Below, in pieces: positions 50 through 13,829 of a stretch of 13,855 nucleotides of DNA. The stretch lies in UHGV virus genome UHGV-0141996. One strand, written 5' to 3'. The position numbers and the translations under genes are program-made. Under the pieces are notes generated by a model. It was not told the DNA's origin. It did not search any database and worked only from the letters and a program-made list of their open reading frames with translations. Source of the stretch: a virus. Positions within the stretch are counted from its first letter, which is position 1. Each line of letters starts with the position of its first letter.

Positions 50-964
50 TTATGGTAAGTATTTAAGTATTTCTGCTGCCCAGTTTACACGGTGGATGAC
101 ACGGGCATGGTGCAAGTTTCCGTCTAGTATTTCGGCTTTAGTTAGCTGGGATAACTGCTGCCAATTATTGTTAAGTATATAAGTTGCGTTATTACATTGT
201 GAGCTTTCTAGCACGTAAATGTTTTGGCCTGTGAACCCAAATATCACGTAGCCTTGGAACCCAGCTTGCCCAACCGCTACGAAATCTGGTTTTTTACTAT
301 TGATAAGTTCAAGTCTGCCTTCAACAACAGCGGTATTGCCCTTTCCCCTGATCTTAATAGCTGAAAGGATTTTTGAACCGATAGTACTCCAAGGCTGTTG
401 ACCCTGAGGCAGGAGGCTCCAGTTTAGTTTTATAGATTTACTTTTAACGATGGTATTAAGTTGGTCGTCAACAGTTTCGCACAACCCAAAAAGCTCTAAA
501 AAAAGATTAATGCAGTGAGCCACTAACTCTTTGTTGTTAGCTGTCAAACTTAGCTTTGGAGAGATGATCAACTTCTCCCCTTGCAGATTCTCTACAATCT
601 TTAACTCTATGCTTGGTGGAGGGGTGAGGATTCTCTTGTAGCGCTTATACTCAATTTCACGAGTGTCAGTAACTTCTTGAGTTGCGCCCCCTCCGATCCA
701 TTGCTTTCTAGTCCATGAAATTTGTCTGTATGCAGTTTCTTTAGGTGCTGTTTTGTCAGGTACTGATTTGCCATTAGCATTGAATCTGGTTATTGGCCCT
801 AAAATTTTGGGGAGGACTTCTTCACCTAAAGCTCTTTGACTTGAGAAACCAATAGAGTCCGTTTTCCCCGCATCTGGCAAAGAATGTGCAATGTAGATAT
901 CACGGCCATCAAAGTTAGGTATGTAATTATCAATATTTCGAATACGCTTTTTCTGAATAAGCAT
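50..964 (-). CDS. Hypothetical protein, 304 aa, AT-rich orphan; no recognisable motifs
   Basis: Uninterrupted 304-codon ORF with ATG start and a good Shine-Dalgarno (AAGGA, 7 nt upstream on the minus strand). Composition is visibly more AT-rich than the central operon. Hairpin immediately downstream. No catalytic or family motif recognised by eye. Confidence 0.7.
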   Translation of the reverse strand: MLIQKKRIRNIDNYIPNFDGRDIYIAHSLPDAGKTDSIGFSSQRALGEEVLPKILGPITRFNANGKSVPDKTAPKETAYRQISWTRKQWIGGGATQEVTDTREIEYKRYKRILTPPPSIELKIVENLQGEKLIISPKLSLTANNKELVAHCINLFLELFGLCETVDDQLNTIVKSKSIKLNWSLLPQGQQPWSTIGSKILSAIKIRGKGNTAVVEGRLELINSKKPDFVAVGQAGFQGYVIFGFTGQNIYVLESSQCNNATYILNNNWQQLSQLTKAEILDGNLHHARVIHRVNWAAEILKYLP

Positions 965-1802
965 GGATCGTTCCTTTTGATTTTATCTTACTGTTTACAT
1001 AACCAACCAAGCCGGGCACAATCGAGCCGTTAGAGACGATAGTGAGGCTAACAATCGTTATGAGTTTGCAGACTCATGGCGGTCATGCTTCATAGACCGG
1101 ATTCACGCAGGTGACTCCGGTTTTTTTATGCCCATCATTTATACATGGGCACAACATATAGGGTGTGTTAATAAGATTACCCCCTACATGTTCAGCATTC
1201 TAGTTAGGATTCTTTGCAGTACAAGGGTTGATTTTGAGGTTAAATTGAGGTTGTCAAAGGGAAATTTCGACCAACCCTACGTGCCGTAAGGCTTAGGCTG
1301 TATGTCAATGTTTCAGAAAAAAAAATGAAAATTTGATCGAGTGCTGATTTCTTTAGCACGAGAACATGAGATCGAACCAAAATATTGCAAAGTTTTGAAC
1401 AAAACTTGAACTGCCTCGTGTCTCCATAGCCAAGACGAATGCAGTTTAAATAAGCTAAGTCAGCTCTCAAAAGTCCTTTATGACCCGAACCAAAAATTGT
1501 ACCTCTTAAACCCCACCGCAAGCGGCTCTCCGGGGTTTGTGCGCATGGAGTAATGCGGTTGTACTGGGTATGTGCGCACAACCCTCTACAAGCCGCATTC
1601 TACCGTTAGCCTATAGCTGAATCCCCGGCTTGAAAAATTGCACGCTTATGGTTGCCCCTCCCTCAACTCTATAGCTCGCCCGCGCCCCCGTGCGCATGTG
1701 CGTGCCCGCGCGTCAGGGGTCGCTGAGAAAACCCTAAGATTTTGCTCATCCGAGGCAACCGTTGCAGGCGCGTGTTGCCGAGGGCACACTGCCAGTGTTT
1801 GA

Positions 1803-1908
1803 TGGTGTCATCAATCGTTCGATTCTTGCTACCTTCCTGAGTGATTACTATCTGGTGTCATCAATTTAGGGTTTGACTAAATGCTACCACCAATGCAATG
1901 ATGCTACC
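1803..1908 (+). promoter_or_regulatory. Repeat-bearing leader/promoter region upstream of the serine recombinase gene
   Basis: Exact 13-bp direct repeat TGGTGTCATCAAT at 1803-1815 and 1853-1865 (50 bp centre-to-centre). ATGCTACC at 1881-1888 and 1901-1908, plus TTGCTACC at 1826-1833. TTGACT -35-like hexamer at 1873-1878. SD GGAGAGGTG precedes the ATG at 1940. Confidence 0.35.
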
Positions 1909-1939: not shown

Positions 1940-2515
1940 ATGAGGACTTTTATCTACTGCCGCGTTTCAACACGCGAGCAGGATACGCAGAATCAGGTGC
2001 TGGCTATTGAGCGTGCCGGGTACACGGTGCCTGAGAGCAGGGTAATCAGCGAGGACATTTCCGGCAGCGTTCAGGCTATGCAGCGCCCTAAGTTTCGGGC
2101 GATGGTTGAGCATAAGCTGGAAGCGGGAGATCAGCTTGTCGTGCTGAAACTGGACAGGCTGGGGCGCGACAACATCGACGTGCAACAGACCATCGACATG
2201 CTGTTAGAACGTGGCGTGAAGGTGGTGTCTCTTGACCTGCCAGCGCGTGATCTGACTTCATCTGAGGGCAAGCTAATCCGCCAGATGTTTGGAGCTTTTG
2301 CTGAGTTCGAGCGAAACCGTATCCGTGAGAGGACGCTGGACGGGCTGGAGAAGGCGAAAGCCAATGGCGTTAAGCTGGGACGCAAGGAAGCCACCGACAC
2401 CACTGAAAAGGTGCTGGAGTTGCGGAGTGAGGGGCTGTCTCAATCGAAGGTAGCGAAGCGTCTCGGCGTTAGCGTGAGCACCGTTAAACGCCACTGGAAC
2501 AAGGGCGAGGAGTGA
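1940..2515 (+). CDS. Small serine recombinase (resolvase/invertase family), 191 aa
   Basis: N-terminal YCRVSTREQ motif with the catalytic serine. LVVLKLDRLGRD and FAEFERNRIRERT blocks align by eye with gamma-delta/Tn3 resolvase. C-terminal HTH (SQSKVAKRLGVSVSTVKRH). Strong SD. Confidence 0.9.
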   Translation: MRTFIYCRVSTREQDTQNQVLAIERAGYTVPESRVISEDISGSVQAMQRPKFRAMVEHKLEAGDQLVVLKLDRLGRDNIDVQQTIDMLLERGVKVVSLDLPARDLTSSEGKLIRQMFGAFAEFERNRIRERTLDGLEKAKANGVKLGRKEATDTTEKVLELRSEGLSQSKVAKRLGVSVSTVKRHWNKGEE

Positions 2516-3215
2516 TGGCCTACAACCGAATGAGGTGCTATGACTGGCCGTTACTGGGCTGTGGGTGATGGATGACCTACAGCTTTTGTATTAATTTCAG
2601 AGGGTTATGTTATGCGTAATATCATAACGATATGATTTATAATGTATTTTCGTATTACTTGCGGCTCTCGATGTGAAGAGGTGGCGGGGCTTTAGCCGTG
2701 CCAGACGATGAACATCGAGATCAGATTGTGAATGTGATTCATCACTGAACAATTCGAGGGATGGGGCAGGGGAAGGGATCAAAGGCTGCGTTGTCCAATC
2801 ACTAAGCTAGATTTGAAGCTGGTCAACACGTTAGTAGTATCTTTAAAGTTGCATTTTAAATACATGTACAAGAAAGGGTTCTTCCCTTACATCCCTTCTC
2901 CTAAATGTAGTTACGAGTGCTTCGCTCTCTTCACTTGCTGCGCTTCTCGCTATGCTCCAGCCCGCTCCATCGCCTTTGGCTCATTCCCGGACTTCGCCCG
3001 CTGTGATGCTCGGCCACTCTACGCAACCGTGCTTGCCGTGGCAGGCAACGCGGCGGGGATGTGTAGTGGAACGGTACTCTGTATCGGTATGATTACTGTA
3101 TTCAATCACATACTGGTATCAGTAGGTATCCTTCAAAACATCTTCATTCATTTCTGTATCGTTCAATCATCTTTCTTGTTCGTTTCCTTTCAGGTCTTAG
3201 CCGTTGGTCATTGGT

Positions 3216-3330
3216 CTTACTGCCTGCTGTGCTACTGCCAGCTATGGCACGCCGTCACGGTCTACTGTCTGTTACCTGTCCTACTGCCTTCACTGTCTGC
3301 CGTCTGTCAGTCCTACGGTCTGCCATCCGT
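3216..3330 (+). repeat. Iteron-like short repeat cluster in a pyrimidine-skewed ORF-poor region
   Basis: YTACTGYC-type motifs at 3216-3224 (CTTACTGCC), 3231-3239 (GCTACTGCC), 3261-3271 (TCTACTGTCTG) and 3281-3288 (CTACTGCC). CTGTCTG-type motifs at 3293-3308. Tandem CATCCGT CATCCGT at about 3324-3337. The plus strand is strongly C/T-rich. Confidence 0.4.
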
Positions 3331-3778
3331 CATCCGTTCGGCGCTCGCTTGTTTCGGCTGCGCCGCGCTCGCTCTGCGTATCTAGCGATACTATATCACT
3401 ATAGACACTTTCATAATTATATAATGATTACAGTAACTTATGTTTTCTGTTTTAAAAGCTACTAATAAGGAGATATAGAGCATTACTTACCCGCTTTTGA
3501 CCGACAAAAATCGCGTTGTTAAGTATTGCCAGCCCAGGCTCAATAAGGCTTAGCGAGGTGGTGGCTAAAAAATGAGCTAATGAAGGTATCTACTAAGGAG
3601 AAAGAATAACTCCCGAAGCGCGACAAACTCTCCGATTTTGAAAGTGACTATTAAGGCAGATAAAGACACTGACACTGTTGCTGACATGAAAACTTCTAAA
3701 AGGGCAGAGAGTCTGCCGAACCCGTACCGCTGACCCAACCTGAGCTAATACCTACCCCTATTTTCTGGAGATTTCACC

Positions 3779-5623
3779 ATGCCAACAAACCTACGCCGCC
3801 TGCTTGCGCAGGCTGCCGACGCTGACCCGCTCAATACTGCGGACGCAGATGTACAGCAAATGATCGCTGACGGGATTGTTATTCGACGTTCCAAGATATG
3901 CCCTGTAAAGCGTAAACCCGTTAAGGCGGCATACAACACAAAGACCGAAGAGTTTTATTACAATGCAGATGGCTCCGCGATGACCTTGCGGGAGTGGCGA
4001 ACGCTGCACGGTGTTCAACCGAAGAAACAAAAACAGCGCTCTGACACTGGGTTGCGGCAAGTCATCCAGCCCGGCGACGCGATTCACTGCCGACGCGCTG
4101 AGATTGAGCAATGGCTTAATAAGAAGCCCGCTCGTTATGTTGACCCGCTGCCGCCAGATTTTCCCGGTGTTCGCGTAGACGATGCCGCATTGAAACCGCG
4201 CGAGCACGCCGTGCCGGAAGCGACAACCGGACAGAATGCTTTTCTCAAAGCCTGCCGCGAGTTCCTGATTTGCGATGAGAAGACCATGCGCCGTATCAGT
4301 CGGGGCATGAACCAAATGGAAGCTATGCGCAACGCAGATTTCAAACGCTACGGAGACTCAGGGGAGTTTCGTCAATTGTGGTGTGGAGAGTCGAAGCCTA
4401 CCGAAGATAGATTTAATAGTTCTAATCATCATTGTGACCCGAACGGCTTGGCTGCTTCGCCGTCTGTGCCGCCACTGAATACTGCACCGTATGAGTTCCG
4501 CCCGCTGGCTCGCTGTGACCGAAACGCACGCGTTAGCCTGCTGCCACCTGATGGGCTGGAGTGGAGGCCGGGGCAGTTGTCTGTTGCTGATGCGATCTTT
4601 TCCCGTGGCAGTGATGTGCTTGCCGTACTGCCGACCGGGTATGGCAAAAGCGCCGCCTTCACTTATCCATTGATTTATGAGTCCCGCGCTGGCATTGGCC
4701 TGTCTGTAATCGTGGTTCCTACTAATACCCTTAAGCGTCAGATTCTCCGCCAGTTGCGGGAGGCTGGCATTCACGCTGTGGCCTTTGGCGATAAGCTACC
4801 GAGGCACCGCAACGCACAACAACTGGCGGGACTAGCAGCCGGGGCGTTCCGGGTTGCTGTTGTTTCGCCTGAACATCTGGTTCCGTCGAGTCAGGTTCTC
4901 GCGGCGCTGATGGCTTATGGCGTTGATCGTTTTATTATCGATGAGGCACACACGGTCAAAGACTGGGATTTCCGCCCAGCTTACGACGCAATGCAGCACA
5001 CACTACAGAATGCTTTTCCCTCGGCTCAGCGCTGCGTGTTTACGGCTACTCTACTACGTGAAAATGAGAGCGGTTTAATGGAGGCGCTGGGATGCCGTGG
5101 CGATTACGTTACATTCCGTGCTGATGTTGCTCGCGAGAATATCCAGTTGATTCCGGTCAGGCAGTGCCGCCAGCGATACCGCGCGGCTGTTGGTCTGGTC
5201 GAGGCTCTGCCAGAGGAAGAGAAGACGCTCATTCTAGTCAATGACCTTAAGACGTTGCGGGCGTACCTGAAACTCTTCGGCGACCGGGCGCGCCCATATC
5301 ACTCGAAGACGATGCACCTGAGCAACGAGGAACGCCACGCAAACGCTGAGTGGTTTGCCTCTGCGCCGGGCGCGATTCTGATTGCTACTAAAGCCTTCGG
5401 GCTGGGTGCTGATGTTCCTGATATCCGTAACGTTGTCGTGACATACGTTCCCGATGACTTGCCTGATCTCGTTCAGATGATTGGACGAGCCGGGCGCGAT
5501 GGGGAACCTGCCCGCGCTTTTCTGCTGTGGTCATCGCTGGCGCTGGATGTTGCTCCTGATGAGCTTGCTTACTTCTACCGCCCTGAAAACTGTAACTGGC
5601 AGTACATCGCTAAATACCTCTGA
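3779..5623 (+). CDS. RecQ-like superfamily-2 DNA helicase, 614 aa, with a roughly 280-aa N-terminal region of unknown function
   Basis: Helicase motif I LPTGYGKSAAF, motif II DEAH box FIIDEAHTV followed by DWDFRPAY (RecQ-like), FTATL, and motif VI QMIGRAGRDG. SD GGAG 9 nt upstream of the ATG. The N-terminal region has no recognisable primase or helicase motif. Confidence 0.85.
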   Translation: MPTNLRRLLAQAADADPLNTADADVQQMIADGIVIRRSKICPVKRKPVKAAYNTKTEEFYYNADGSAMTLREWRTLHGVQPKKQKQRSDTGLRQVIQPGDAIHCRRAEIEQWLNKKPARYVDPLPPDFPGVRVDDAALKPREHAVPEATTGQNAFLKACREFLICDEKTMRRISRGMNQMEAMRNADFKRYGDSGEFRQLWCGESKPTEDRFNSSNHHCDPNGLAASPSVPPLNTAPYEFRPLARCDRNARVSLLPPDGLEWRPGQLSVADAIFSRGSDVLAVLPTGYGKSAAFTYPLIYESRAGIGLSVIVVPTNTLKRQILRQLREAGIHAVAFGDKLPRHRNAQQLAGLAAGAFRVAVVSPEHLVPSSQVLAALMAYGVDRFIIDEAHTVKDWDFRPAYDAMQHTLQNAFPSAQRCVFTATLLRENESGLMEALGCRGDYVTFRADVARENIQLIPVRQCRQRYRAAVGLVEALPEEEKTLILVNDLKTLRAYLKLFGDRARPYHSKTMHLSNEERHANAEWFASAPGAILIATKAFGLGADVPDIRNVVVTYVPDDLPDLVQMIGRAGRDGEPARAFLLWSSLALDVAPDELAYFYRPENCNWQYIAKYL

Positions 5624-7525: not shown

Positions 7526-8254
7526 ATGTCTGACCAGAATGTTAATCCGTACCTTTCCGGTGCTGATACTGCATCGCAGCAATCGCCGTACATGGCTGCA
7601 CCTGTTGGCGCTGACAATGGCGCATCTCGCTTTAGCTCTGCGCCTGCTGATGCTGATTTCCTCCGTACCCAGCCCGTTAATGGCAATGATGGCGGCCAAT
7701 GGAATAATGGCAACATTGCTAATCAGCAAGACCAGAACGCGGACAGCGCCGGGGCGCAGGTGGGCGATACTATCCCCCTGATGGATGGAACAGCTATTGA
7801 GTACACCGCCGAGCTACAAGGGTTAATGGGGCAGTTTCACCAGTCTGTCGAAAGCCAGCTAGGGCAGGGGACAGTTGACGCGATGTTGCAGTACGCTGGC
7901 ACACTCGACGCTGGGACGCAATCCACCCTTGAACGTATGGTTATGTCTGGCGACCCTGCGCAGATGCAGCGGGCGGTTCAGTACCTGCAAGAACGTATGG
8001 CTGCTGGTTCTGCTTCCGGGTACGTTCCTGCACAGGGAAACCCATACGGCCAGCCTGCCGCGCAACCTGTCGGAATGTCACATGCTGAGTTTATAGCAGC
8101 GTATGACCAGCTTTCGCAGTGGGCGCAGCAATCAGGGTATGGCCCCGGCCATCGCCAGTACGACGAACAATACCGTGCTCTGGTTGCGCAGCGCTCCGCT
8201 GGCAAACGTGCTGGTCGCTTACGCCCAACGGTGGAATGCGCCCTGCAAGACTGA
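7526..8254 (+). CDS. Gln/Ala/Gly-rich low-complexity protein, 242 aa; possible scaffolding protein
   Basis: Strong SD AGGAGA. Low-complexity Q/A/G/D-rich composition with predicted helical C-terminal half. Sits immediately upstream of the capsid-like gene region, as scaffold genes do in T7-like and P22-like head modules. The functional call is positional and compositional only. Confidence 0.4.
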   Translation: MSDQNVNPYLSGADTASQQSPYMAAPVGADNGASRFSSAPADADFLRTQPVNGNDGGQWNNGNIANQQDQNADSAGAQVGDTIPLMDGTAIEYTAELQGLMGQFHQSVESQLGQGTVDAMLQYAGTLDAGTQSTLERMVMSGDPAQMQRAVQYLQERMAAGSASGYVPAQGNPYGQPAAQPVGMSHAEFIAAYDQLSQWAQQSGYGPGHRQYDEQYRALVAQRSAGKRAGRLRPTVECALQD

Positions 8255-8993: not shown

Positions 8994-9989
8994 ATGGCCG
9001 ATAACATTTACTCGCCTGACCAGTTCCGCCCACATTATGGCGGGGTGGAATCTGACAATGATATTCACATCGAGGCTTATGACCGGGATGTCCAGACCCG
9101 TTTAGAGTCCAAATCCGTATTTCTGGCCGAGGGGCTGTCTACATACAGGCCGCTGAAAGCCAGCAACCAATACCGCATTGATCGCCTGAGTGGTGATCTT
9201 GAGGTGAAGGGCAGAACCGCAGGGCAATCGCTGGAGCCTACCGCCGTTAAGTCGGACAAGTTGGTTATCTCTGTGGATACGCTGAGCTATATCCGCATCC
9301 CGATTGACTATCAGGATGACTGGACAGCTCCCACCTTTCGCGCAGAGCTGAGCCGCAATATCGGTACTGCTCACGCTAAATTCTACGACGAAGCGCACAC
9401 CATCCAGCTAATCAAAGCGACTGACTTCGTACCGCCGCCGACACTGCAACCAACGTTTAACCCGCTTACGGATAATGTTGTCTCGCTCGACCTGACAGCG
9501 GGGAGCGAAGAGGATGCAGCTAACGAACTGGTTCACGCTATCAAAGCTGCTGTTAATCGATTCCTGACTGAGAAAGATATTCCGGTGGCGGAGCTGGTAC
9601 TGCTTATCGACCCGGCTTGGTTCAGCATCCTGATGGAACATAAGAAGCTGATGAACGTCCGTTACAGCCGGGATAGTGGCAACGATTACGCATGGCGTCG
9701 TGTTGGCTATGTCGCTGGGGTGCGAGTTATCGAGCTGAATAGTTACCCGCAGGAAGCCATTACCGGGCATGAACTGGGCGCTGATTATGACGTTACCGCA
9801 GAGGAAGCGCTGACGAGGGCGACGCTGTTTAAACCTTCCTCGGTACTGTTGACGGTCGAAGCGCAGAGCGTCATCAATCGCCAGTGGGATGATGAAAGCG
9901 AAATGACGATGGTGATGGACTCATATCGCCTGTTCAACGTTGGGCTGCGTCGTCCTGACTGCGTTATCAATTTCCGACAAGCTGCATAA
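8994..9989 (+). CDS. Putative major capsid protein, 331 aa, T7 gp10-like by eye
   Basis: Strong SD AGGAG. Length and block pattern resemble T7 gp10 from memory: KLVISVDTL..IPIDYQDD...RAEL..NIG.AHA and a C-terminal VLLIDPAWFSIL ... GVRVIEL ... LF..S.V.L.V block. No protease gene adjacent, consistent with a scaffold-dependent capsid. Confidence 0.55.
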   Translation: MADNIYSPDQFRPHYGGVESDNDIHIEAYDRDVQTRLESKSVFLAEGLSTYRPLKASNQYRIDRLSGDLEVKGRTAGQSLEPTAVKSDKLVISVDTLSYIRIPIDYQDDWTAPTFRAELSRNIGTAHAKFYDEAHTIQLIKATDFVPPPTLQPTFNPLTDNVVSLDLTAGSEEDAANELVHAIKAAVNRFLTEKDIPVAELVLLIDPAWFSILMEHKKLMNVRYSRDSGNDYAWRRVGYVAGVRVIELNSYPQEAITGHELGADYDVTAEEALTRATLFKPSSVLLTVEAQSVINRQWDDESEMTMVMDSYRLFNVGLRRPDCVINFRQAA

Positions 9990-11242: not shown

Positions 11243-11640
11243 GAAAAGCGATGCGGGACTATCTGGAACACCTCGGCAACATGCCGTTGGCTGAACGGAT
11301 TACAAATGCTGCTGTATTCGAAGATGTGTATCGCTTCCTGTTGAATGGTTCCGGTCGGCTGGAGTTGCGCCGCGCTGATGTGGCCGCTGTTCGTATCTTC
11401 CTGTGGAATTACCAATACCGACGCTGTGCGGTGACAGGTAAGCCGCTGCGCCTTACGTCTGCCGTGCTAGATCACTGCCACCGAACCGGGCGCGTGCGTG
11501 CTGTGGTGCATCGTTCTGCTAACGCTGCTGAGGGAGGCCGCTACGTTGGGCGGACGTGTGGTGTTAGCGTTGCGAACTTAAGGGCTATGGTTGGCAGCTA
11601 TCGCAAGCAATACACCGGTATTGGCGTGTTATATCCATAA
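11215..11640 (+). CDS. Endonuclease VII-like (HNH superfamily) protein, 141 aa
   Basis: Segment CAVTGKPLRLTSAVLDHCHRTGRVRAVVHRSANAAEG matches the Endonuclease_7 pattern (C..C-like ... DH.H.TG.VR ... N...G) with substitutions. GGAG 9 nt upstream. Last gene of the plus-strand operon. Confidence 0.55.
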   Translation: MVTRTDQLLRKAMRDYLEHLGNMPLAERITNAAVFEDVYRFLLNGSGRLELRRADVAAVRIFLWNYQYRRCAVTGKPLRLTSAVLDHCHRTGRVRAVVHRSANAAEGGRYVGRTCGVSVANLRAMVGSYRKQYTGIGVLYP

Positions 11641-12671: not shown

Positions 12672-13829
12672 TTATTTGCTTATTTCATCATTTGTGATTT
12701 GCTCGACATACTTCCTCGTCTCTATAGGAGAAGCTGCATTTTTCGAGTAAGTTTTGAAGCTCTCTGTACTCCCGCGCTCATGACCGACGAGCAGGGCAAT
12801 ACGATCCTCTGGTACTTGAGCACGGTCGAGCTGTTGCACAAACGCATGGCGGAGTGAGTGAAACACTTTTCTCTCTGCGGCAGGTTCGCCAAGCGCTTTG
12901 CGCTTCGCCCGTGTGAACTGCTGGGTGTGCCACGTTGAACGCTTTCCGTCTGCCCGGTCTGTGATTGAGGCGTGATAGAACAGAAAACCGCTATGTGTGG
13001 TCTTGAGCAACGACTTCACGAGAGGGATTAGCTTGCTGTGTACTGGGACGATTCGTGCCGCGCTCTTGGTCTTCCCCTCGGTGATCTCAAAGCACAAAAC
13101 GCCCTCGATGGTTTTAATACTGCTCTCACGCAGCGTACATATTTCATTGATCCGCATACCGCTGTAAGCACCAATAGCCGTTACCGCCTTCATCTCGTCA
13201 TCAAGTAAGGTATAGATCTTTGCCAGCTCTCCCGGTGCGAAGACTTCATAGCTGACCTTGCTGCTTTTTGCTTCGAGCGCATGACCACGCCAAGGATTGT
13301 CCTGTGGTGCATCGTGATAGCGATTGCGTGCCAAATCCCAAATCTGTGCCAGTGCGCTTATATAGTTCTGGATGGTTTGCGGCGCTCGCTCAGTTTTGAG
13401 CTTATCTAACCAGCCTGTAACTATGGATCGATTAATATCCCGCAACTGAATATCTTTCTTTTTCAGGTGGGTTAACAGCACCTCTACGGCTTTGTTGGTC
13501 TTGGATAGCGTGGTTAGCTTTCTCTTCTCACTGTATTGGAGAAGATACAGATCGCGCATTTTAAGTAGGGAAGGGCAAGCCTGAACCGATGCACCAAATG
13601 ATGCGGGGGCTTCCTTAGCATACACACTGACACGGCGTAGCTCATCAATGATTTGATCTACGGATGAGCCGCCTTGCGGCTTAAGCAGATTCCGTAAGCG
13701 AGTCCATTCCAGAGCAATAGCATCGCGAAACAAACGCGCTTGCCGTATGTCTCGTGTCCCTGTGCTTTTCATAAAGTAGCGCTTCCCTTGGAACAGGTGG
13801 CGCATGTAGATGGGAATAGCTATCCGCAC
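12672..13829 (-). CDS. Tyrosine recombinase / phage-type integrase, up to 385 aa; start ambiguous (GTG at 13829, ATG at 13805 or 13772)
   Basis: Tyrosine-recombinase motifs: Arg in GMRINEICTLR, HSLRHAF (His-x-x-Arg), LLVGHERGSTESFKTYSK (His and catalytic Tyr). The ORF track begins with GTG. The internal ATG at 13772 is preceded by AAGGGAAG and would give 366 aa. Confidence 0.9.
   Translation of the reverse strand: MRIAIPIYMRHLFQGKRYFMKSTGTRDIRQARLFRDAIALEWTRLRNLLKPQGGSSVDQIIDELRRVSVYAKEAPASFGASVQACPSLLKMRDLYLLQYSEKRKLTTLSKTNKAVEVLLTHLKKKDIQLRDINRSIVTGWLDKLKTERAPQTIQNYISALAQIWDLARNRYHDAPQDNPWRGHALEAKSSKVSYEVFAPGELAKIYTLLDDEMKAVTAIGAYSGMRINEICTLRESSIKTIEGVLCFEITEGKTKSAARIVPVHSKLIPLVKSLLKTTHSGFLFYHASITDRADGKRSTWHTQQFTRAKRKALGEPAAERKVFHSLRHAFVQQLDRAQVPEDRIALLVGHERGSTESFKTYSKNAASPIETRKYVEQITNDEISK

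Follow-up and report, generated by a model that had tools for sequence, protein, structure and literature searches.

The window analysed here, a stretch of 13,855 nucleotides (nt) from the virus genome UHGV-0141996, represents a genomic island inserted at a tRNA-Leu gene (leuX) of Escherichia coli. Its closest genome is that of strain KFu019, where the island is 15.4 kb long and flanked on both sides by a 31-nt repeat of the 3' end of tRNA-Leu. Between the cargo gene and the serine recombinase gene of this island, the DNA from position 1623 to approximately 1850 is probably a copy of the concatemer junction of Bonnellvirus phages, and would then be the packaging and cleavage site of an apparently undescribed satellite of T7-like phages.

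The non-coding region was compared with 50,697 phage records, and its sole phage matches are found in Bonnellvirus (Autographiviridae, T7-like, virulent). Positions 1623-1702 are ~80% identical (E 3e-8) to a site located past the last gene of these phages, the endolysin gene, and before their early region; the aligned phages are megetsur, aldrigsur, altidsur and J8-65. The record of J8-65 carries an annotated direct terminal repeat of 259 bp, which was checked and is identical at both ends. This repeat opens with TCGACCC, directly after ...TCCCGGCTTGAAAATTG...CCTCCC. The window reads CCCCGGCTTGAAAAATTGCACGCTTATGGTTGCCCCTCCC followed by TCAACTC, and the step between 1662 and 1663 aligns with the first base of the J8-65 repeat, hence with the physical left end of the phage genome. 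The elements of the junction are as follows, the cut being marked by a slash.

1623 to 1662, plus strand: conserved core CCCCGGCTTGAAAAATTGCACGCTTATGGTTGCCCCTCCC, present in one copy in the window and homologous to the Bonnellvirus DNA that adjoins the direct terminal repeat on its left; proposed pac element for recognition by the terminase.
1662 to 1663, plus strand: predicted cleavage point CCTCCC/TCAAC, the J8-65 counterpart of which is CCTCCC/TCGACCC.
1663 to 1848, plus strand: terminal-repeat-like segment, termed right-flank type A, which begins with TCAAC; its right limit is inferred and uncertain.

Judged by these alignments, the segment is homologous to the phage terminal-repeat boundary. 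The core is kept at the same position in 20/20 Bonnellvirus records. To the right of the cut, the first 45 nt are ~69% identical to the phage repeat, and the segment harbors CTATAGCTCG, a CCCCC stretch at +23 to +27 (1685-1689) as in the phages, GTGCGCATGTGCG, and a GGCAAC/GTTGCC hairpin region (1754-1779). The short motifs GTGCGC, TATAGCTCG and GCGCGTCA(A/G)G are common to the type-A flank and the phage repeat. Sequencing reads starting at the predicted cut would begin with TCAACTCTATAGC or TCGACGGTTAAGG.

The behavior of the junction within the island family sets the core apart from its surroundings. The comparison comprised 54 junction instances: 15 islands found independently of the core, through BLAST searches with the region and through the capsid protein, with one genome taken per species; 39 loci picked up in viral and metagenome contigs by scanning for a DNA pattern; and, for the rest, phage termini. 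The core is present in 15/15 of the islands identified without using its sequence, and the mean column conservation over these islands is 0.97 in the core, as compared to 0.57 on its left and 0.75 on its right. Its flanks are swapped: at least nine unrelated left types and three right types (A, that of the window, B and C) have been identified, all left/right combinations occur, and the mosaic breakpoints cluster at 1621-1624 and at 1667. Every right-flank type opens with TC[AG]AC, followed by CCCCC at +23, like the phages. As the core is invariant while its flanks interchange, it is the fixed point of the locus, and the hairpin module on its left would be dispensable.

The clustering of breakpoints at both core edges could also be explained if the core and its flanks were a site of the island's own, either a crossover site at which the serine recombinase swaps cargo, or a promoter/operator of the recombinase or of a leftward cargo gene. 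The serine recombinase gene is always located within ~300-900 nt, the leftward cargo gene starts ~50 nt from the core in E2348/69 and P2-EC53, and repeated 24-nt units in 1522-1596 look like binding sites. However, homologous recombination between diverged islands would also yield breakpoints at a short conserved block. The recombinases are divergent and the core is invariant; proximal repeats such as TGGTGTCATCAAT co-vary with the recombinase type, which the core does not; and the orientation of the cargo beside the core varies. Moreover, this core is also found at the repeat boundary of the phages, and the one complete Bonnellvirus record examined, that of altidsur, lists no recombinase among its 55 annotated features. 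A site belonging to the island alone thus appears improbable.

The reading as a copied phage junction draws further on a second stretch of phage-like DNA, located beyond the recombinase gene.

3212 to 3442, plus strand: second phage-derived segment, 88-94% identical (~91%) to Bonnellvirus left-end DNA.

In the phage, its counterpart is situated between the terminal repeat, on the left, and the early host-type promoters, ~320 nt right of the counterpart of the first segment. Island and Bonnellvirus have in common GATACTATATCACTATAGACACTTTCATA, a 28-nt motif at 3385-3415. The phage possesses two copies of it, one at the left end and one, inverted, just after the RNA polymerase gene; the island possesses one, pointing into the helicase-capsid operon. 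The CACTATAGA part of this motif resembles the T7 and SP6 promoters, and the motif may be how the helper switches the island on. The non-coding matches between island and Bonnellvirus reach 91-96% identity, versus 65-75% for the capsid DNA. The best phage match of the second segment varies between islands: for four of them (L001, L006, L008, L026) it is megetsur, at 96% identity, and for the window, L009 and L014 it is altidsur, at 90-92%. These best matches to different phages in different islands imply repeated exchange with phages replicating in the same cells.

The island resembles a satellite in that it has attachment (att) sites and an integrase without a complete set of virion genes, only capsid and scaffold-like genes being present. 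Its molecular link to the helper consists of a capsid protein 57% identical to that of Bonnellvirus and of the two shared non-coding terminal segments; apart from the capsid, no island open reading frame (ORF) is homologous to phage altidsur. The island is mobile, as indicated by a near-identical capsid in five genera (94-98% protein identity across Kluyvera, Enterobacter, Kosakonia, Trabulsiella and Escherichia) and by the 31-nt att repeat that bounds it.

The right edge of the terminal-repeat-like segment is marked less sharply than its left edge, and two kinds of short elements are found there.

1849 to 1857, plus strand: TATCTGGTG, inside CTATCTGGT (1848-1856), which may mark the right edge of the repeat.
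1803 to 1815 and 1853 to 1865, plus strand: two exact TGGTGTCATCAAT direct repeats, located ahead of the recombinase gene and 50 nt apart; candidates for recombinase or operator sites.

CTATCTGGT resembles the class-II pause signal of T7, which reads CTATCTGTT at the concatemer junction of that phage; the window copy is one base off the ATCTGTT-like consensus. In most islands a TATCTG[TG] motif, albeit short, follows the cut at +168 to +284, with surroundings of at least three unrelated kinds; in the phages it is located at +257 to +278. For the type-B flank, an alignment with the pause region of megetsur is obtained at +197 to +240 (z = 7). In T7, pausing of the RNA polymerase at the concatemer junction starts maturation (PMC3276506). 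The TGGTGTCATCAAT sub-module travels with the type of recombinase gene and not with the core or the right-flank type, and islands with a different recombinase have GGGTATACCTGATAAAGACACAGACACACTGTCTCA in its place. A perfect 9-nt inverted repeat, AAACCCTAA (1729-1737) and TTAGGGTTT (1866-1874), brackets the GGCAAC hairpin and the TGGTGTCATCAAT repeats and may be due to chance. To note, the type-B flank contains a hairpin CCCAGCC-GAAG-GCTGGG (L006 5189-5205) that corresponds to CCTCGCC-GAAG-GCGAGG in type C (L015 2743-2759), ~+35 to +52 past the cut: two compensatory pair changes preserve the stem, and type A, that of the window, has no equivalent.

A mechanism can be proposed by analogy with T7. 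Upon infection by a Bonnellvirus phage, the island would excise and would be transcribed and/or replicated via its phage-like left-end element, forming concatemers. The helper terminase would recognise the core and cut between 1662 and 1663, and the repeat-like stretch right of the cut would be duplicated as in T7. The island DNA would then be packaged in linear form, bearing a repeat at its ends, and the heads that receive it would probably be made of the island's own capsid protein. In this linear form, the recombinase gene and the long rightward operon would enter a new cell first, and the variable cargo last. All genes from the recombinase to position 11640 read rightward, and a sigma-70-like promoter is located at 1873-1902. 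Genome entry of T7 is driven by transcription, which the rightward island genes would suit as well. The serine recombinase beside the repeat may circularise the island after injection, a step that phage P1 performs with its Cre-lox system. A packaging function of the island junction is, on this comparison of sequences, reasonably probable.

Several observations weigh against this scheme. The likeness of the repeat-like part to the phage fades after ~45 nt, and local alignment of the type-A flank to the right-edge regions of the phages gives no signal, the right edge thereby resting on a pause-like motif of 9 nt. The physical ends of a Bonnellvirus are annotated in one record only, that of J8-65. 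Among the viral and metagenomic contigs inspected, none ends at the predicted cut and none represents an excised or circular form; a contig of 14.6 kb (L047) spans the island interior only and breaks beside both att sites, which is uninformative, and the other contigs are integrated. IMG/VR contains two island copies only, neither of them informative on physical ends. Excision, replication, cleavage and packaging of the island are all deduced from sequence comparison. Finally, among the ~150 of 5,426 complete E. coli genomes that carry the segment, at least 90 carry it in a degraded island without capsid or helicase genes; these genes being gone, its presence there would reflect recent descent and not function.

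The degraded copies are what might be expected if the phage-like sequence were a functionless relic of recombination between island and phage, or if the phage had taken it from the island, its conservation being due to recent divergence. Most E. coli copies are indeed 95-99% identical, the island family is highly mosaic, and P2-like phages have captured a fragment too. This fragment was found when phage homologues of the right-flank types B and C were sought beyond the core, a search that returned no Bonnellvirus match. It lies in the Z-region hotspot of the P2-like phages R18C (L062 4252-5168) and P2-EC53 (L063 284-1200), and comprises a cargo ORF also present in E2348/69, the core in decayed form, 52 nt of the type-B flank, and a 78-nt piece located just upstream of the capsid gene in another island (L019). 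As an observation in its own right, it shows cargo moving between satellite and P2 hotspots.

A relic, however, would not be the sole fixed point of the locus, and the core is ~97% conserved across five genera while unrelated sequence replaces both of its flanks. Its constant position in the Bonnellvirus records and the joint retention of two separate phage terminal segments and a capsid gene also argue against a relic. The core captured by the P2-like phages is decayed in the part nearest the cut, where GCCCCTCCC has become CGATTTACC, which is consistent with a constraint that acts only in the context of satellite and helper. Overall, a relic is held to be unlikely, and the copied packaging junction is retained as the preferred explanation.

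The left flank of the core in the window is a module, named L-I, with the following parts.

1507 to 1539: hairpin 1, AAACCCC-ACCGCAAGCGG-CTCTCC-GGGGTTT, a predicted fold that opens the optional left-flank module L-I.
1508 to 1622: left-flank module L-I, optional, with both hairpins, three 24-nt units, GTGCGCATG at 1539 and CTATAGCT at 1611.
1552 to 1599: hairpin 2, an imperfect 48-nt palindrome with GTGCGCAC at its apex.

Hairpin 2 had been flagged by a sequence-only reading of the window, which described a GC-rich structured segment in the intergenic region and proposed a small RNA, a protein-binding array or a remnant of the element boundary. The GC contrast with the DNA towards the cargo gene is borne out (0.57-0.59 at 1501-1800 versus 0.355-0.37 at 1201-1500). 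The copies of GTGCGCATG at 1539 and 1690 and of CTATAGCT at 1611 and 1669, the palindrome GTGCGCAC at 1572-1579 and the 3' arm ACAAGCCGCATT at 1588-1599 are all found where they were placed, and the GGCAAC/GTTGCC hairpin exists, with GGCAAC at 1754-1759 and GTTGCC at 1774-1779. The geometry of hairpin 2 needs amendment. Its 5' arm AATGCGGTTGT is present, but at 1552-1562 instead of 1554-1564, a shift of 2 nt. Instead of being enclosed in the loop, GTGCGCAC forms the apex, with a GCGC loop, as the stem runs further inward (GGGT.TGT/ACA.ACCC). The hairpin is thus real but longer than first described, the whole of 1552-1599 being palindromic. This palindrome arises because a 24-nt unit ending with GTGCGCA, identified by repeat search, is present in three copies, two of them direct (1522-1545 and 1555-1578) and one inverted (1573-1596).

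The structure and repeats of the segment are only weakly non-random for its composition. The fold of 1505-1625 has a z of -2.1 on the plus strand and -1.6 on the minus strand, and that of 1539-1704 as DNA a z of -1.1. With dinucleotide shuffles, 60/200 match the energy of the best 50-nt hairpin in 1500-1720, a repeated 9-mer is found in 6% and three repeated 8-mers in 2.6%. The enrichment of GTGCGC/GCGCAC in 1500-1720 (4 observed versus 0.24 expected) alone stands out.

The two predicted hairpins in 1505-1625, stable on either strand, could belong to a structured small RNA or to a transcription terminator or insulator; in strain 550, the hairpin module starts 36 nt past a plus-strand cargo gene. 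Nevertheless, an Rfam search of the segment retrieves no family at the gathering threshold and nothing relevant at E <= 10. No intrinsic terminator is called in 900-2000, hairpin 1 included, since the U-tracts are poor (tails TTTGTG and TTTAAG). Conservation of the paired positions, the check suggested for the small RNA, gives no support: over 16 distinct variants, 0/25 pairs are compensatory, 11 are broken in one variant or another by uncompensated substitutions, and every measure of covariation falls within the shuffle range. The pairing of hairpin 1 is poorly kept (75.8% of cells paired in the variant alignment), one variant (L040) has lost the 5' arm of the hairpin and kept the 3' arm, and the hairpin energy is ordinary for this composition. 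Finally, the hairpin module is missing from ~40% of related islands. At the level of sequence the hairpin shows no sign of selection for structure; the small RNA proposed for this segment finds no footing, and an RNA, terminator or insulator function of 1505-1625 is very unlikely. Hidden coding was also rejected, as the overlapping ORFs 1240-1581 (minus strand) and 1638-1802 (plus strand) have no Pfam match, and a tRNA/tmRNA search of the window was negative. Elsewhere in the intergenic region, the plus strand of 994-1127 displays a promoter-like TTTACA-17-CACAAT (994-1022), followed by a hairpin and T-run CCGGATTCACGCAGGTGACTCCGGTTTTTTT (~1098-1127); such an arrangement might specify a ~100-nt small RNA that runs divergently from the leader of the 50-964 cargo gene or is antisense to this leader.

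L-I is the commonest left flank, being found in ~27/46 islands, where it occurs together with each of the three right-flank types and beside several kinds of cargo. Where it is absent, at least eight unrelated sequences stand in its place, the cargo DNA meeting the core directly at 1621-1624. A phage homologue of L-I was sought by blastn and none was found. The module would therefore be dispensable, an accessory not needed for the function of the core, which may hold extra binding sites or insulate the junction from the cargo. GTGCGC-type motifs are also enriched in Bonnellvirus terminal repeats, and the unit structure of L-I together with these motifs suggests, as a guess, protein binding. 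The idea of a protein-binding array is thus plausible, on grounds other than those first given: the right half of the segment is homologous to the Bonnellvirus cleavage and terminal-repeat junction. PMC4281155, citing Chung & Hinkle, mentions a hairpin close to the repeat in a packaging intermediate of T7; this secondary mention serves as a lead only.

The proposal of an element boundary holds in a different sense from the one intended. The segment was rejected as an att site, the 31-nt tRNA-Leu repeats being located elsewhere: in one complete copy of the island (L001), the tRNA-side repeat lies ~2.1 kb to the left and the other ~12-13 kb to the right. It is hence no literal integration boundary, but it is the edge between variable cargo and conserved backbone as well as the predicted physical end of the packaged DNA.

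From the tRNA side, the island comprises a cargo gene, 975 nt of non-coding DNA, the serine recombinase gene, 1.26 kb of non-coding DNA, and a DpdF-like DEAD-box helicase with small ORFs; then follow the scaffold-like and capsid genes, an HNH nuclease and an endonuclease VII-like gene, a methyltransferase, and the tyrosine integrase. The annotated genes are the following.

50 to 964, minus strand: cargo gene coding for 304 amino acids, with no match in Pfam, PHROGs or PADLOC.
1940 to 2515, plus strand: small serine recombinase of the resolvase/invertase family (Pfam Resolvase 1.8e-36, and HTH_7); first gene right of the predicted left end.
7526 to 8254, plus strand: head-scaffolding-like protein (phrog_1018, E 7e-7).
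8994 to 9989, plus strand: Bonnellvirus-type major capsid protein, which shares 57% identity with that of phage forsur across 98% of the length (E 8e-117).
12672 to 13829, minus strand: tyrosine integrase (Pfam Phage_integrase), at the far end of the island.

Related islands are inserted at tRNA-Leu or tRNA-Gly, and the cargo between the tRNA and the segment differs from one to another. The gene at 50-964 fills this variable slot beside the tRNA, where other islands carry other genes, for example one coding for a DUF3800 protein; it is a candidate defence gene. A recombinase occupies the position of 1940-2515 in every island, with several divergent types. After Bonnellvirus, the next relatives of the capsid protein are those of other Autographiviridae, at ~43% identity. 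Pfam and PHROGs scans of the island proteins reveal no portal, terminase or tail gene, and, with PADLOC added, none of the hallmark genes of P4-like elements (psu, delta, sid or alpha), of PICI (alpA and pri-rep), of cf-PICI (portal, protease, TerS and TerL) or of PLE. The helicase (3779-5623) is matched over nearly its whole length by DpdF profile PDLC02858 of PADLOC (E 9e-278) but belongs to the conserved island backbone, suggesting either that island copies went into the making of this profile or that the helicase has a role in replicating the island. Within the non-coding DNA, ~985-1363 (most strongly 1151-1363) is 70-83% identical to unannotated DNA of many plasmids from Klebsiella, Citrobacter, Enterobacter and Salmonella; these plasmid matches sometimes adjoin genes annotated as tail-fibre assembly or recombinase, and are unrelated to the phage-like junction.

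Satellites are known to copy the cos or pac sites of their helpers. To our knowledge, all well-studied E. coli satellites exploit temperate phages, and satellites of virulent phages are known mainly from Vibrio (PLE and PICMI). The nearest parallel to the island junction comes from engineering: T7 packages and transduces plasmids that bear a T7 origin, a pac site and a terminal repeat, as PMC13236587 relates in citing Chung & Hinkle 1990. As in the T7 junction, unique right-end DNA abuts the left edge of the repeat in the island, and an element resembling a phage-polymerase promoter follows further right. These are the same three modules that engineers place on plasmids for T7 packaging, and a pause-like TATCTG is found after the repeat-like stretch of the island. 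The differences are that the island sequence derives from Bonnellvirus and resides on a natural integrative island known here from its sequence; that a recombinase gene separates the two phage pieces, ~1.5 kb apart instead of ~0.32 kb in the phage; and that the repeat-like part is shortened and rearranged.

The cos site of P4 and the pac or cos sites of PICI and SaPI resemble the island junction in that the satellite copies or matches the packaging signal of its helper for the helper terminase. In P4-like elements, moreover, a variable hotspot of cargo (defence) genes adjoins the packaging site (PMC9122126), as in the island. The helpers of P4, PICI and SaPI are, however, temperate cos or headful phages, whereas the island would depend on a virulent podophage whose genome ends in exact direct terminal repeats, a mode of packaging that requires duplication of the repeat; and the island is devoid of the sid/psu/delta, alpA and pri-rep hallmark genes of P4 and PICI. 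PLE, the Vibrio cholerae satellite of virulent phage ICP1, and PICMI are integrated islands that respond to, and are packaged by, a virulent helper, as the present island would be. They differ in host, helper family and gene content, and have no major capsid protein of their own. Such a protein is found in cf-PICI, which the island also resembles by its scaffold-like protein and HNH nuclease; conversely, cf-PICI encode portal, protease, connectors, TerS and TerL and take only tails from the helper, while the island has no portal or terminase and carries the helper junction. In the literature searched, no satellite that exploits T7-like, Bonnellvirus or Autographiviridae phages in E. coli came to light, an absence of evidence only, coverage being incomplete. 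The copying of a helper packaging site by a satellite is thus a known principle, and its application to the exact-terminal-repeat junction of a virulent podophage appears new.

Taken as a whole, the island might be a natural "T7 phagemid", the representative of a new family of Enterobacteriaceae satellites that parasitise virulent Bonnellvirus phages by mimicking their concatemer junction, borrowing a promoter- or origin-like element from the helper left end, by which the helper polymerase would activate or replicate them, and building heads from their own capsid protein; this broader picture is tentative. If true, it would be the first known satellite for Autographiviridae and for exact-terminal-repeat packaging, and T7-like lytic phages, on which phage therapy and synthetic biology rely heavily, would have natural parasites that move variable cargo genes among Escherichia, Enterobacter, Kluyvera, Kosakonia and Trabulsiella. 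The minimal packaging signal is hard to pin down even for T7. The 40-nt core and the start of the repeat would then provide a compact natural definition of a minimal direct-terminal-repeat packaging signal.

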